Assembly: GCA_964452795.1 (NCBI GenBank)
Contig: CAYVOE010000003.1
Coordinates: forward strand, 1-34,881
Origin: an uncultured Nitrospiraceae bacterium
GTDB lineage: Bacteria > Hydrogenedentota > Hydrogenedentia > Hydrogenedentales > SLHB01
Length of the DNA stretch: 34,881 nucleotides
Direction: 5' to 3'
Each line of letters opens with the position of its first letter. Positions within the stretch are counted from its first letter, which is position 1. A program made the position numbers and the translations under genes. Below the pieces are notes generated by a model, which was given only the letters and a program-made list of their open reading frames with translations, was not told the origin of the DNA and made no database searches. Positions 11,741 through 18,300 of this stretch are shown here, in pieces.

Positions 11741-13522
11741 CTATTCGGCGGCGTTCTCCCAATCCGGTACGAGGCGCACCGTCACCTCGAGAGGTCCGGC
11801 CGGGGCGGAAGTCCGCAGCACCAGACGCCGGACGCCCTTGTTCTCCCGTTCGGGGGGCGCCTGTTCCGCCGACTCCTCGGAGAAGACCGCACCCTCGGGC
11901 GACAGGATGCGGGCGAAGAGGCGCTTTCCGTCCTGGGTCAGGACCGCGTCGCCGGAGTCCCGGATCTCGATGACGGCGTCGGTCGTCATGCCCCACAGCA
12001 CGTCGCAGGGCGCGGAAAGCTCGAAGCGGTCGCGGATCTCGACTTCCCGTCGAGCGGAAACCAGCGCCACTTCGCGCAGGGCGGACGAGGCGAACTCCGG
12101 GTAGGCCGACGTAAGGTCGATGGTCACCCGGGCCTCGTCGGGACGGGATTCGAAGGACGTCACCTTCGCCGCCGCTTCTTCGTCCTGGTCCTTCCCGTCC
12201 AGCATGGGGACGTTGTGGCTCGCCGACCGCATGCGGTAGTACTGCCAGCGGACGCCGCCCTTGGCCTTGTCCCAGTACCGCGGCAGGTTGTAGTCGTCGG
12301 CGCCGAGGTCGCGGGCCCACCGCACGCCCAGGGCGTCGAGCTCGAAGTTCCCGAGGTCGAGGTGGCCGTGGTTGACCTGGTTGTACCCCCCTTTGACGCC
12401 GACGAAGAGGGCGTTGGGGTCGTCCCAGGCGCTGCGCATCACGACGATGTCCACGGGGCTGCGGAAGTGGCGGTCGAGGTCGCGGGGGGCCTCCTTCCCC
12501 GAGGGCGGCACGTACCATACTACGTGTTCCGCCTGGGCCGAGCGGTCCTCGAGGAGGGCGTGCTCGGCGTCGGCCACGGCGGCGTCGCCATACTTCCGGG
12601 CGAGCCAGAACATGCAGGACATGGGCCCGCGGGCGCTGCGCTCGCCGCTGTCGGCGTAGTTCAGGTAGAGCCCGGTGGGACCGGTGGTGTAGACGGGGAA
12701 GAGCCCCGTGGCGCGCAGGCCGGGGCGGTCCGACAGGCCGAAATCGGTGCCCAGGGCCGTATCGAGGGCGCAGAGGCCGTAGGCGGTGTAGCGCGTGGCG
12801 TAGTGTCAGTAGCCGGGCCCTTCCATCCAGGCGCCGTCGGGGTTGTAGGCGTCCAGTGCCGGGGGAAGGGACGCCACGGCCCGGGGAACGATGGTCTCGG
12901 CGTAGTTCGGGTCGGTCTCGGCGATGGCGAGGGCGCCCACGACCATGCCGGCGTTGCAGACGTTGTTCCAGTTGAATTCCGACTTCGTCCACCAGTGTCC
13001 TTCTTCGTAGGCGATGAGCCCCGGCTTCAGGCCCTTCTCGACGATGGCCGTCTTGATGCGCGCGCGGGAATCCTCGCTCAGCCAGTGGAAGAGCCAGTCG
13101 TAGCCCACGGCGGTGGCGTGGGTCATCTCGGCGGTGTCGAGGAAGTGGGACGGGTTCCAGTCGGGAAAGTCCGACACCGTCAGCAGGTTCGATTCGGCTC
13201 CGCGGGCGTAGCGTTCGTCGCCGGTCCAGCGCCAGGCCAGCCCCAGGGTGTAGACCCGCCTCAGGCAATCCCGGCTCACGTGGAGCAGGCGCGGCCCTAC
13301 CAGCTTGTGTTCGAGGACCGGAGCGTCGAGGGTCTTGTCGGCCTGCTCGATGACCTGGGCCACCATGCGGCTCAGGGCCGGGTCGCTGGGCTCGGCGGCC
13401 TTCAACGCGTCCAGTTCCTCGGCGGTCAGCATGAGCCGCGGATGGTCGGCCCGCAGCGTATCCAGGACAATGGCGGCGTCGACTTCTCCGGCCGCCAGCA
13501 ACATGAACACAACGGTCACCAC
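11741..13522 (-). pseudogene. Heparinase II/III-like (DUF4962-type) polysaccharide lyase gene interrupted by in-frame TGA at 12806-12808
   Basis: ORFs 12806..13540 and 11741..12622 share a frame; read-through gives ...HPRL...NWNNVCNAG...DGAWMEGPGY*HYATRY...YLNYADS...HGHLDLGNFELDALGVRWARDLG...SHNV; no other stop. Confidence 0.8.
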
Positions 13523-13711
13523 GGTCACCTCTCCTCTCAAGCTGTGTGGCGCAAGTGCAAGTGGACGAAATCGCGTTGGTAGTCCCCTTTCAGCGACTCG
13601 CGCAACGTCCTCCCGTCGGCGTCCGAACCGCGGTCCAAGTCGTCACTGTAGACACCGATGCTCCGAACTGCAAGTAGCCGTTCGACACCCCGCCGTTGCG
13701 CCTCGGCTCGC

Positions 13712-14218
13712 TCAGTGGGTCCGCCGTGTCTTGCCTCCTGACCGTTTGGATGGCGTTTCCGCGTTCCCCGCCTCCTTGGACCGTCGTGTTCGCTGCTTCT
13801 CCGAATCCAGGCCTGTTCTTATGTCCATGAGGGGGATTGTGAACGGTCCTCCCGGACAGAACGCCGTTGCTTGAAGCACCACACCTCGGGCCAAACCCAT
13901 GAGGTTTGCGACCGGCAGGTGGGGTATATAGCTCGGGACTTTGTCTTCAGGGAAGCCGTCGGGCAATCGGAAGAACCCTTCGAGCTCAACCAGGATCTTC
14001 TTGAAGCGCGCCCCGGGCTGGTCCGGCCAAGTGAGCTTCAGGCAAAGACGCACGCGAAATCGTGGCTCCGTCTTGTGTTTGCCGAACTTTGTCTGAATCT
14101 GGCAGGCGAACTTCTCCTCCTGCGCGGGACCGCCGCTCGATCCCTCCTCCGGCGAGGTCTCGACGACCAGACGATGGACAACAAAATGCTCAAGCTGCAA
14201 AGGCGAGGGGGAAGCCAT
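13712..14218 (-). CDS. SecB-like chaperone (third gene of toxin-antitoxin-chaperone module)
   Basis: SPLQLEHFVVHRLVVE start, central beta strands (RFRVRLCLKL, KILVELEGFF), helix ANLMGLARGVVLQATA and GGPFTIPLMDI, matching the SecB layout; ATG 14218 overlaps the antitoxin 3' end. Confidence 0.75.
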   Translation of the reverse strand: MASPSPLQLEHFVVHRLVVETSPEEGSSGGPAQEEKFACQIQTKFGKHKTEPRFRVRLCLKLTWPDQPGARFKKILVELEGFFRLPDGFPEDKVPSYIPHLPVANLMGLARGVVLQATAFCPGGPFTIPLMDIRTGLDSEKQRTRRSKEAGNAETPSKRSGGKTRRTH

Positions 14219-14633
14219 CGGCCGTGTACACCTCATCTTCCGGCTCCGATTCAAACGGGACGAAGTCGTACCGTTCCGGGGATACGACCGAGGTCCCTTC
14301 GAGGCTCACTTCGCAGTCCACCTCTTCGGATGTTACGGCATCGTATTCGCGGTTCATGGTTTGCGGACAAAGAACCGGTTCGCTCCATTCGGCATCCAGC
14401 GCCCAGGCAATTCGAGCCAGGCTGCGAAGCGTGAGATTCGCGTTATAGTTCAGCAGTTTCGAAACGTAAGGCTGGCTCACGCCCAACCTGGCCGCCAGGT
14501 CGCTCTGGGTAATACCGAGCTCGCGCATGCGACGACGGATCGCTCCGTTCACGCGCAAGACGAGCATCTCGGTCAGAAAGTCGGGGTCTTGCTGCAGTTC
14601 CTCCTGTAACGCCTCGCCCCACGTCTTCTCCAT
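14190..14633 (-). CDS. XRE/HTH antitoxin (HigA-like) with acidic C-terminal extension (ChAD-like)
   Basis: IRRRMRELGITQSDLAARLGVSQPYVSKLLNYNANLTLRSLARIAWAL HTH; ~60-aa acidic tail ending ...ADGFPLAFAA; RBS GGGGAG; start adjacent to the toxin stop. Confidence 0.85.
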   Translation of the reverse strand: MEKTWGEALQEELQQDPDFLTEMLVLRVNGAIRRRMRELGITQSDLAARLGVSQPYVSKLLNYNANLTLRSLARIAWALDAEWSEPVLCPQTMNREYDAVTSEEVDCEVSLEGTSVVSPERYDFVPFESEPEDEVYTADGFPLAFAA

Positions 14634-14635
14634 CT

Positions 14636-15079
14636 TCACCTTCTCCCCTGCGTATGGCCTGCCCATGTCGGCGCACGATCCTGCTCCATGGGCCACTGAC
14701 TGTTCTGATACTTCTTCCTGAACTCTATGACTTCGTTGATCTGGATGTCTTGCTCCTTCTTCGGCCCCTTTTTCCAGCCGCGTTCGAGCACAAGTATGTG
14801 GCGCCGAGTGTGATCCCAGAAACCGAAGAGGCGAATGCCATCGGATTTAGACTTGAGCTCGATGATGTCACCACGGACGATTTCACACTTCGACTTGTCA
14901 AGGTCATCGATACCCCGTTCCGTGATGTACTGAAACAGAGCGATAACGCGCTTCTTGGCATCTTTGTTCGATTCGAAGACTGTCTTGAGGAAAGACTCGA
15001 CCTTGCACCGTCCGGAGTCCAGGACGATGCCGCATACTTCAAACTGCTTCCCCTTCACTAGCCTCCGCAATGAACCCAT
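14636..15079 (-). CDS. RelE/HigB (Gp49-like) toxin
   Basis: GRCKVESFL, IIELKSKSDGIRLFGFW, ILVLERGWKKG pattern typical of HigB/Gp49 RelE-fold toxins; toxin-first gene order. Confidence 0.78.
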   Translation of the reverse strand: MGSLRRLVKGKQFEVCGIVLDSGRCKVESFLKTVFESNKDAKKRVIALFQYITERGIDDLDKSKCEIVRGDIIELKSKSDGIRLFGFWDHTRRHILVLERGWKKGPKKEQDIQINEVIEFRKKYQNSQWPMEQDRAPTWAGHTQGRR

Positions 15080-15085
15080 CGACAG

Positions 15086-15114
15086 ATTATAACCTATGAG
15101 TTATACCCCGTCAA
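15086..15114 (-). promoter_or_regulatory. Consensus sigma70 promoter with overlapping palindromic operator of the TAC operon
   Basis: Minus strand TTGACG (15114-15109) - 17 nt - TATAAT (15091-15086); palindrome TATAAC-N6-GTTATA at 15088-15105; ATG follows 6 nt after the -10. Confidence 0.8.
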
Positions 15115-15307
15115 GACGGCTTTACTTTTTCTTTCCGCCGCGCCGTACGGTTGGGACGAAATCTCGTGACTCTATTATTACATAATTCTCGTGACGCGCC
15201 GCAGCACCACGGATTTCCTGTTTCATTTGGCAGATGCAGTCGAATCCACCATCACGGCCACATGGTTCATGTGGCAGATGCGGCCACGCGAGTTCAGTTC
15301 CTGACTC

Positions 15308-15348
15308 AAGAAAGAAGAATGCCGCCGCGGGGGGAGTTCCGCGGCGGC
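15308..15348 (-). terminator. Intrinsic terminator of the pil operon
   Basis: GCCGCCGCGG/CCGCGGCGGC 10-bp stem followed by ATTCTTCTTTCTT on minus, 20 nt after the pilQ stop. Confidence 0.75.
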
Positions 15349-15368
15349 GTGGGTCGGTGCGAGGGGTG

Positions 15369-18300
15369 TTACTTGGCGCGGCGCCATTTCCAGGCGGGGT
15401 CGCGCATTTCGCCGGGTTTGGCCATGGAACGGAACATGGCGCGCTGGGAATCGGGCACCCGGGGCGTGGCGCCGAGTTCGTCGTAGGCGGCCTGTTCCTC
15501 GGGGGTAAGCTCGGGCAGATCGATGCCGAGGACGTGGCAGGTGAGGAAGATCATCAGCTCGGTGTTGGTCTTCTCGCTGCGCGTGTTGCGGAACAGGAAG
15601 TTGATCACCGGCACGTCGCCCAGCACCGGCACCTTGGACACCTCGAGGCGGTCGGCGTGGTTGCGCAGGCCGCCGATGAAGATGGTCTGGCCGTCCTTGA
15701 CGGTCAGGGTGGTCTCGGCCTCGCGCTTGTCTTCGATGGGCACGCCGGTGTCGGTGAGCCCGCTCACGGAGCTCTGCTTGGCCGAGATGTTGGCGATGAT
15801 GTCGTTCAGATGGGTGACCCGAGGCGACACATCGAGGGTGACGCCGATGGGCTTGAACTCGGTGGTGGCCACGGGCGGTCCCTGGGTGGTCTGGGTAATC
15901 TCCTGGTAGGGGAACTCCTGGACGATGCTGATGCGACCGGTCTCGTTCTCGACGATGACGATCTGCGGGTTGGCCAGGATCTTGGCGTTCGAGTTGCTCA
16001 CCTCGGCGGCGATGGCGGCCTGGAAGTCGATGTCGCTCGACAGGATGTTGAAGCTCAGGAGGCCCGCATCAAGGGCGCTGGTCCCCACGTTTCCGAGGTT
16101 GGTGCCGAAGTCGAGATCCTGGAGGCTGCCGACGATCTCGCCCCGGGTGTTGCGATCCCGGACGATGCTGAGCAGCCACTGGGTGCCCGTTTCCGACGAG
16201 TCGGACAGGACGGCATCGACGATCATGGACTCGATGGCGACCTGCTTGACGGGGATGTCGATGGTCTGGATCAGGGCCCGCACCTGCTCGACCACGGCCG
16301 GGATGTCGGTGACGATGAGGTGGCGTCCGCGGGGATCGACGGCGGCGTTTCCGACGTCGGTCGACAGCATGCCTTCGACCATCTGGATCACGTCGTCCGG
16401 CTCGGCGTAGTTGAGCTTGATGGCCTCGGTCACGGTGGGGGTCACGGGTTCGGCGACGTCGAGGGCGTTCGCCAGGGTCACCAACTGGTTGACCCGCTCA
16501 GGCGGACCCGAGATGACCAGGACGTTGGTGGCGCCGTTGGCGGCCACGGAGACGGAGCGGTCCGCCTCGCCCTGGAGGATGGCGTCGAGGGTGAGCTTGA
16601 TCTCCTCGACGCCGGCGTTGTCGAGGGTGACCATCTCGGTGGTGCGCTTGGTGACGAGGGCCTGCTCGTACGGGATGATGCGGTAGACGCCCTCTTCCTC
16701 GACGAGGCCGAGGTCGTGCATGCGCAGCACCATCTCGAGGGCCTGGCGCAGGGGCACGCGCTTGATGCTGGCGGTCACGGTGCCGGTGAGCTCGGTGCCG
16801 GCGATGACGTTGATGCCCGCCTTGCGCGCCAGGAGCGCCACGAAATTGCTGAGGTCCATCTCGCGCAGGTCGAGGTTGACGGGTTCGTAGAGGGCGCTCG
16901 CGTCTCCCACGACCTCCTCGACGGGCTCCGCGGTCTCCACGTTCTCGACCGGGATGGGCGCGGCCACTACGACGCTGCGCGTCGGCGCGGGCGCGGGTTC
17001 GGGCGCCGCGGGCGGCGGAGGAATGGCCTCGGCCGGCTCGGGCGCGGGCTCTTCCGACGCGACGGGCTCGGCGGGAATCTCGACGGCCAGGACGGAGGCC
17101 TCGCCGGCGGGGGCTTCGCCCGACACGGCTTCGCTTTCGGCCTGGGCCGTCAGCATCGCGGGGGCCAGGCGTTCGAGGGCGCCCGACAGGGTCGCCGCCG
17201 GGGAAAGGCTCGCGAGGCCCAGGTCCACCTGTGCCGTCTGCACGGCTTCGATGGCGGCAGGGGCCGGGGCGAGGGCCGCGTCTTCGGTCTTCAACGGCTC
17301 GGAGGCCTTCGCGGGAAGGGCCGTCTTGAGCTTGCGGAACTCGGCATCGAGCCGGGCCAGCGAAGGCTCGCCTTCTTTGGAAGGCGCCGCCGCGGCGACC
17401 TGCACGCGCGATTCCGCCTCGCGACCAAGGGCGTCGAGGACGGCATGCACTTCGGCGAGTTCCGTGGCGAGCGACTCGAGCTCCGCGCGATGGGTCGCGT
17501 CGAGGGCGTCGGCGCGCTCGGCCCACTCGGCATAGGGCGCTCGGTCGTCGTCAGCCAGGCGGGCCTGTTTTCCTTCCAAGACTTCCAGGACGCGGCGGGC
17601 GGAATCGTCTTCCGCGGCGCCGTCCTCCAACCGGGCCTCGAGGGACCGGAGGTCTTCGAGGTCGCGGCGGATGCGGTCGTTGATTTTCTCGGCGTGGGCG
17701 CGGGACTCGGCGGCCAGGACCTGCTGGGCGGCGTCGTATCGGGCGACGAGCTCGCGGGCGCGGGCTTTGACGTCGTGGCACCGGGCTTCCACGTCGGCGA
17801 GGCGCGACTCCGTGTCGTTTGCAGCGGCCTCCGCACCGGCCGGATCGGTCAGGCGGGCGAGGCTTCGGGCCAGGTGCGTCGACTTGGCTCCCTGGAGCGA
17901 GACGACGCAGGCCGTGGCGGCTTCGTCGACGGACGATTCGAGGGCGAAGTGCCGGTCGCGGGCGCGGGCCAGGCGCTCTTCGAGGCGGGCCTGTTCGACG
18001 GCCACGGATCGGGCTTCGGCGTCGAGCCGTTCCCCGAGGTCGCGGGCGGCGGTCCGCAGGGGCGACGCTTCCAGGCCGGACACGGGGGCGCAGACCACCC
18101 GCAGCGCGCCGTCTTCGAAGGTCATCCGGGGCGCGCAGGGCTCGGCGAGCTCGATCACCACGCGGGAGACGAACTGGGGTTCGAAGGCGTAGAGGCTGGT
18201 GCGGACGGCGCGGATCGGCGCGGCCTTTTCAGGCTCCAGCTTGGACCCCGACATGGGATTCAGGGTGTTGTAGAGGTCGACGGCGAGCTTGCGACCGCCG

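Follow-up and report, generated by a model that had tools for sequence, protein, structure and literature searches.

The 34,881-nt stretch of DNA analysed here (the window) comes from an uncultured Candidatus Hydrogenedentota bacterium and carries on its minus strand, between positions 15079 and 13712, three adjacent genes that we call T, A and C. We refer to the three together as the module. An earlier note on this DNA had described them as a toxin-antitoxin-chaperone (TAC) system, in which a RelE/HigB-like toxin (T) and a helix-turn-helix (HTH) antitoxin with a long C-terminal tail (A) are followed by a SecB-like protein (C). Our analysis favours the same reading: with a probability of about 0.8, the cassette is a HigBA-type tripartite TAC that was acquired horizontally by this bacterium. 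The genes and signals involved are as follows.

14636-15079, minus strand: toxin gene T, 147 aa; Gp49/HigB-like protein with a predicted RelE fold and a long C-terminal helix
14190-14633, minus strand: antitoxin gene A, 147 aa; an N-terminal helix and an HTH_3 domain up to about residue 82, then a tail
14190-14387, minus strand: tail-coding part of A (residues 83-147); putative chaperone-addiction (ChAD) region ending in an Ala-Ala degron
13712-14218, minus strand: chaperone gene C, 168 aa; predicted SecB fold over residues 5-150, then a basic C-terminal tail
15086-15114, minus strand: predicted sigma-70-like promoter, with TTGACG at 15114-15109, a 17-nt spacer and TATAAT at 15091-15086 (11 of 12 matches)
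15088-15105, not assigned to a strand: palindrome TATAAC-N6-GTTATA overlapping the -10 box; putative operator

Gene coupling, promoter and candidate operator

All three open reading frames (ORFs) are intact and follow one another head to tail in the same direction. The stop codon of T (TGA, 14638-14636) lies 2 nt ahead of the start codon of A, which is preceded by the purine-rich sequence GGGGAGAAGG (14648-14639), and the A and C genes overlap by 29 nt. The start of C at 14218 is shared with its two closest homologues, P0007 and P0008, which are 41-43% identical and have the same N-terminal motif. In the case of T, an alternative GTG start at 15058 would yield a 140-aa form, as in the database protein P0005. 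However, the seven residues of T ahead of this GTG are kept at the protein level in P0006 and in L012, a related locus from another genus, with codons that differ. We therefore prefer the ATG at 15079 as the start of the toxin gene.

Two promoter-like sites were found in the 2.2 kb that was scanned, compared with 0.5 ± 0.7 in shuffled sequences. Since the -10 box of the predicted module promoter ends only 6 nt from the toxin ATG, the module mRNA may be leaderless or near-leaderless. The window has a single copy of the motif ATAAC-N6-GTTAT, the one within the palindrome, and 100 shuffles gave none. In L012 an identical motif stands directly ahead of the toxin gene; L006 and L010, two further related loci, have related TTAAC/TTGAC-ttatag-GTT(G/A)A half-sites 1-4 nt ahead of the toxin start. 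From its sequence and position, the -10 palindrome is likely to be an operator through which the HTH antitoxin autoregulates the module.

Family and fold of the three proteins

T matches the Pfam family Gp49 (PF05973) with an E-value of 3.3e-6 and a score of 27.5 bits, above the cut-off of 23.9. An AlphaFold2 model based on a nine-sequence alignment (pLDDT 85.8) places its elements in the order strand-strand-helix-helix-four strands-long helix (H107-125). A long C-terminal helix is described as a trait of Gp49-like HigB toxins in the paper on HigB1, the toxin of the Mycobacterium tuberculosis TAC. Ribosome-bound M. tuberculosis HigB1 (7nbu_Y) was the first row of the Foldseek search with the T model (E 2.8e-3), and HigB, RelE, YoeB and YafQ toxins filled the list. 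Superposition with VIA-align gave a Z-score of 14.8 for Streptococcus pneumoniae HigB (6af4; root-mean-square deviation (rmsd) 2.0 over 111 residues) and of 12.3 for HigB1 (7awk; rmsd 3.7 over 116 residues), whereas the other RelE-superfamily toxins listed (HigB2, RelE, YoeB, YafQ and ParE) scored about 9 or lower. Six residues of T are invariant in the nine-sequence family alignment: E74, R83, L84, F87, K104 and Q110. Compared by order alone, E74, R83, K104 and Q110, together with K76 two positions after E74, resemble the catalytic set of HigB1, which is reported as K58, E66, R68, N73, R77, K95, Q98 and K99. A word-based homologue search with T found two proteins, and a sequence search of the PDB with T alone gave a chance match only (E 1.5). 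By family match and modelled fold, T is a Gp49/HigB-type toxin of the RelE fold.

A matches Pfam HTH_3 with an E-value of 4.9e-10 and the NCBIfam HigA antitoxin model with 2.9e-5, the latter under the model cut-off; a word-based search with A found 10 proteins. Its tail comprises 65 residues (83-147), of which 16 are acidic, 2 basic and 8 aromatic, and ends in ADGFPLAFAA. The closest full-length relative, P0157 (58% identical), ends in ADGFRVAFAA, and thus the end of the tail is kept. We also noticed two proteins, P0158 and P0159, that are 76% and 69% identical to A in the HTH part, have 106-107 aa and no acidic tail, and lie on contigs of about 1 kb. They may be relatives from two-gene HigBA systems or genes cut by contig ends.

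In published TAC work, CmdA (ending in Ala-Ala) and HigA1 (ending in Val-Ala) are reported to carry demonstrated C-terminal ClpX degrons, and the ChAD region is shown to contain both the degron and the site that the chaperone binds. On this pattern the tail of A is a putative ChAD region with a C-terminal Ala-Ala degron. An Ala-Ala end is present in A and in the antitoxins of 9 of 11 related loci. The transfer-messenger RNA (tmRNA) gene of the same genome (G000:C444:60-416, L070) encodes the tag AEDNLALAA, so that the tag end LALAA and the antitoxin end LAFAA differ at one of five positions. The genome also has two clpP genes, one of which precedes, on the same contig, a clpX gene that runs off the contig so that only its 5′ portion is present. 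Taken together, the LAFAA end, the LALAA end of the tmRNA tag and the clpP-clpX pair make it likely that the antitoxin ends in a ClpXP degron that is shielded by the chaperone.

The relationship of C to SecB emerged from its family and from its modelled structure. A word-based search with C found two proteins, and a PDB sequence search with C alone gave no match; a usable family came only from an exhaustive HMMER search, which returned 173 homologues at E <= 0.001. We aligned C with 139 of the 150 homologues listed, leaving out fragments and one 2256-aa protein. Pfam SecB was matched by 53 of the 140 aligned sequences at E <= 0.01, and 24 of the 30 nearest ESM-Atlas clusters belong to a set with Pfam SecB on some members (19-73%, three rows). 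Searched against the PDB, the C-family profile found the SecB chains 1fx3, 5jtl and 1qyn (E 1e-4 to 6e-4) and covered Haemophilus influenzae and Escherichia coli SecB almost end to end, with the invariant R111 of the C family aligned with the arginine of the SecB FPYAR motif. The AlphaFold2 model of C (pLDDT 89.9) contains four strands and two helices. Its top Foldseek match was 5mtw, the M. tuberculosis TAC chaperone Rv1957 with a ChAD peptide (E 1.9e-6), followed by SecB entries, and VIA-align gave Z-scores of 12.6 (1fx3), 12.5 and 12.4 (1qyn) for SecB and 11.1 for 5mtw, compared with 6.3 or less for unrelated rows. As modelled, C has the SecB fold. Its last 33 residues (136-168; window positions 13712-13810) include 10 basic and 4 acidic residues. 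Tails rich in lysine and arginine are frequent in the C family, in contrast to the strongly acidic tail of the antitoxin. A complex prediction with four copies of C and antitoxin residues 80-147, both supplied as alignments, gave no verdict (score 0.01, mark 0.32, controls not run) and is neutral on whether the two bind.

The module most closely resembles the M. tuberculosis TAC (HigB1 Rv1955, HigA1 Rv1956 and Rv1957). They share their gene order, a HigB toxin of the Gp49 type that ends in a long helix (Z 12.3 for T against 7awk), an HTH antitoxin whose C-terminal extension ends in small aliphatic residues, and a SecB-fold chaperone (5mtw as the top match, Z 11.1) that is the sole SecB homologue of its genome. 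In contrast, the chaperones are only 15-18% identical in sequence and the toxins 17-21%, and the module differs in having a longer (65 residues) and strongly acidic antitoxin tail, an Ala-Ala rather than the reported Val-Ala degron, a basic chaperone tail, and a host from another phylum and from compost or manure. Two further HigBA-type TACs were compared by description rather than by sequence. HigBAC of E. coli NT1F31 likewise joins a HigBA-type unit to a SecB-like chaperone, and aromatic residues in its antitoxin tail are the proposed recognition pattern, of which the tail of A has eight. Its HigA is reported to end in Leu-Pro and to be independent of ClpXP, whereas A ends in Ala-Ala; its phage trigger is given as lambda gpV. 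Glov-TAC of Geobacter lovleyi is described as an experimentally validated HigBA-family TAC outside the Actinobacteria, with a ChAD of 30 residues (86-115) compared with the 65-residue tail of A.

CmdTAC (PD-T4-9) of E. coli also has a SecB-like chaperone, and an Ala-Ala ClpX degron is reported for its antitoxin. CmdT is described as an mRNA ADP-ribosyltransferase, whereas T is a Gp49 protein with a predicted RelE fold and has no match among the PADLOC models; identity with CmdTAC is therefore ruled out.

Distribution, composition and genomic setting

The C-family profile had matches in 12 of 135 Hydrogenedentota genomes, that of the window included. The relatives amount to 12 loci in 11 other genomes; one of them (L013) is cut by a contig end, which leaves 11 loci with gene context. 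At all 11 the SecB-like gene overlaps or abuts an antitoxin-size ORF immediately upstream of it, and eight of these ORFs are homologous to A as judged by phmmer; the antitoxin of L011 has Pfam matches to HTH_3 and MqsA. A toxin-size ORF stands ahead of the antitoxin at 10 of the 11 loci, and the T-A-C order proposed in the earlier note, which in the window has a 2-nt gap and a 29-nt overlap, is thus a recurrent one. Gp49 is matched by six of the toxin-size ORFs, four above the Pfam cut-off and two below it (all six with E <= 0.01). That of L010 has no Pfam match and aligns with Gp49 toxins, those of L002 and L014 match DUF4258, and that of L011 is without an assigned family. Because varied toxins and antitoxins are found beside SecB-like genes, the chaperone family appears to be attached to more than one toxin-antitoxin family; association of chaperones with HigBA, MqsRA and HicAB systems is reported likewise. 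The antitoxin-size proteins of L002 and L014 (213 and 170 aa) have a GFGFPVVI motif in common and no Pfam match. A single-protein locus search with C in the genome contigs recovered no relative, and searching the DNA of 30 relatives with the module gave no match, which is expected because all 30 belong to other genera.

The module differs in composition from its surroundings, as the earlier note had claimed in calling it AT-rich. Its GC content is 0.570 compared with 0.674 in the rest of the window, and the GC content at third codon positions (GC3) is 0.69-0.71 in T, A and C compared with 0.89 in the upstream gene, pilQ, and 0.91 in the downstream gene, which encodes a lyase. Among 670 sliding windows of the same length, the 1403-nt module ranks seventh lowest in GC. 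The dips in GC and GC3, the patchy spread over 12 of 135 genomes and the absence of the module from the same site in relatives fit a foreign, horizontally acquired cassette, and what the note had called a poorly studied lineage is an uncultured candidate phylum. The intergenic stretches on either side contain three further features.

13563-13576, plus strand: direct repeat, left copy, 14 nt, 13 of 14 identical; possible insertion scar
15154-15167, plus strand: direct repeat, right copy, 14 nt, 13 of 14 identical to the left copy
15348-15321, minus strand: GC-rich terminator-like hairpin with a T-run, 3′ of pilQ

A flanking repeat of this quality arose in none of 300 shuffles of the two intergenic stretches, in a test made post hoc. 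Repeats that exceeded shuffled sequence were found at 2 of 11 modules tested, namely that of the window (14 nt) and L009 (17 nt, 16 of 17 identical), and they are therefore not a general feature. The window contains no tRNA gene, and none of the ORFs sampled, a part of those in the window, is an integrase. The hairpin after pilQ indicates that the module is transcribed as a separate unit. On the other side, no terminator was predicted in the gap from C to the lyase gene. We also observed a 19-nt direct repeat (89% identical; 15219-15237 and 15263-15281) in the stretch that separates the pilQ terminator from the module promoter; its two copies are 44 nt apart. A scan of 13000-15800 against Rfam gave sub-threshold chance matches only.

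Between 68 and 100% of the sampled words of the module stretch were present in DNA runs labelled as compost or manure, from several studies. Exact matches to 14444-14966 came from contigs of three RNA libraries, each from a different study; X15 (14594-14857), one of these contigs, spans the T/A junction. Another, X18 (14606-14763), reaches less than 31 letters past that junction into the antitoxin gene and was not counted as bridging. The RNA-library contigs included none over the chaperone gene or the promoter and none joined across the cassette in the way expected of an empty site, gaps that we treat as holes and not as evidence. These contigs are a weak hint that the module is transcribed.

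The module lies, as the earlier note had it, between a pilQ gene and a lyase gene. The upstream neighbour encodes a 1069-aa secretin (Pfam Secretin, E 5e-42, with Secretin_N, STN and AMIN domains) and is itself preceded by a PilO gene; the downstream neighbour is a heparinase II/III-like lyase gene (E 6.5e-11). The lyase gene (11741-13540) is a frame of 599 codons with a single in-frame TGA (12806-12808, minus strand; GPGY*HYATRY), which may reflect a pseudogene, an assembly error or a recoded codon. The earlier note had further suggested that the module might protect against phages that use the neighbouring pilus as receptor. We examined relatives' pilQ loci in two partly overlapping sets (29 + 25), and T, A, C and the lyase gene were present in none within 1.5-3 kb downstream. 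With none of the 54 pilQ loci followed by a TAC, the adjacency to pilus genes looks incidental, the module is not linked to such genes generally, and the proposed connection to pilus-dependent phages finds no support. The PADLOC v2 models that the note had put forward as a check do not call the module either. T had no match and A matched generic HTH models only; apart from these, the models returned just a weak match for C, to PD-T4-9_C (E 0.0079), over 106 of the 135 positions of the profile.

Proposed mechanism and alternative explanations

Our model of the module is as follows. A single promoter would drive T, A and C, probably as a leaderless mRNA, and the antitoxin, alone or with the toxin, would repress this promoter through the -10 palindrome. 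The toxin would be a ribosome-dependent mRNA endonuclease like HigB1, which the antitoxin would neutralise through its folded N-terminal part. The acidic, aromatic tail would act as a ChAD that destabilises the antitoxin, with its LAFAA end mimicking the LALAA end of the ssrA tag and marking the protein for ClpXP, unless a tetramer of the SecB-like protein bound and shielded the tail. When phage structural proteins or unfolded stress clients drew the chaperone off, ClpXP would degrade the antitoxin, and the freed toxin would arrest translation.

Several observations weigh against this reading. The homology of C to SecB is visible only at the level of profile and fold: C itself has no SecB match in Pfam at E <= 1, the only match being a spurious one to IRF-3, and a search of its own genome with Pfam SecB (PF02556) gave no match at E <= 10. 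For the toxin, the Foldseek E-value of 2.8e-3 is weak, a PDB search with the toxin profile reached at best an E-value of 0.11, to unrelated chains, and the invariant residues were matched to the catalytic set of HigB1 by order and not residue by residue. One related locus, L005 (G017:C12), is an A-C pair with no detectable toxin gene upstream; we noticed another TAC in this genome, L014, whose toxin is of the DUF4258 type. Two of the 11 related antitoxins lack the Ala-Ala end, ending in Ala-Val (L012) and Cys-Ala (L010). E. coli HigA ends in Leu-Pro and HigBAC is reported to work without ClpXP, so the degron is not universal in TACs. In addition, the RNA-library contigs may be DNA carry-over, and we infer the toxicity, neutralisation, chaperone dependence and ClpXP dependence of the module.

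Among the alternatives, it is very improbable that C is the general SecB export chaperone of the cell and merely lies beside an ordinary two-gene HigBA pair. Such a role would suit the finding that no further SecB homologue was detected in the genome (94.6% complete, 791 contigs) with Pfam SecB or the C-family profile, and TAC chaperones are reported to be able to resemble SecB in overall structure. However, C and A overlap by 29 nt and are alike in their low GC3, a C homologue follows an antitoxin-size gene at 11 of 11 related loci, homologues in just 12 of 135 genomes of the phylum are too patchy for a housekeeping gene, and the tail of C is basic rather than acidic. We also regard it as very improbable that the cassette is a non-functional relic, its toxin dead or its operon in decay. 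The in-frame TGA of the adjacent lyase gene indicates some decay nearby, and L005 has lost its toxin. In the module, on the other hand, none of the three ORFs is disrupted, the toxin retains the residues that are invariant in its family and the promoter is near consensus; DNA runs of several studies contain the stretch with hardly any change, and RNA-library contigs match it.

A weightier alternative, which we consider a real possibility though somewhat short of even odds, keeps the TAC anatomy and sees in the module a growth switch that responds to stress, or a selfish cassette maintained by addiction, instead of a phage defence system. E. coli HigBAC and CmdTAC, the former of the HigBA type, are reported to confer phage immunity, with the HigBAC chaperone sensing the lambda major tail protein; by analogy with these systems, the module may have an anti-phage role. 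TACs were first described as stress-responsive systems, and it was for the M. tuberculosis TAC that a role of this non-defence kind was first proposed. The module is flanked by a secretin and a lyase gene and by no defence genes, and it is not called by the PADLOC models. A selfish insert would be consistent with its low GC and with the direct repeat on either side, whereas its patchy distribution is typical of defence and selfish genes alike. The present data discriminate neither way.

A broader proposal goes beyond the HigBA-type TAC reading and is, in our estimation, a long shot. Recombinase-free TACs would form a family that spreads in Hydrogenedentota as small, repeat-bounded inserts, and the ends of their antitoxins would copy the ssrA tag of the host. 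The module would then read chaperone occupancy together with the load on ClpXP and trans-translation, and would serve to sense phage structural proteins and trigger abortive infection.

On the HigBA-type TAC reading, the module adds one member to an established class of systems, and close relatives of it might already be listed in published TAC censuses or ChAD alignments. Experimentally characterised TACs are known from Actinobacteria and Proteobacteria, and their extension to an uncultured candidate phylum is incremental. What distinguishes the module is the ssrA-like end on an acidic and aromatic ChAD candidate, an operator candidate that is recognisable across genera, and borders that are possibly marked by repeats. 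As a compact and well-delimited unit of 1.4 kb, it offers a test case for the generality of the chaperone-shielded-degron logic in TACs.

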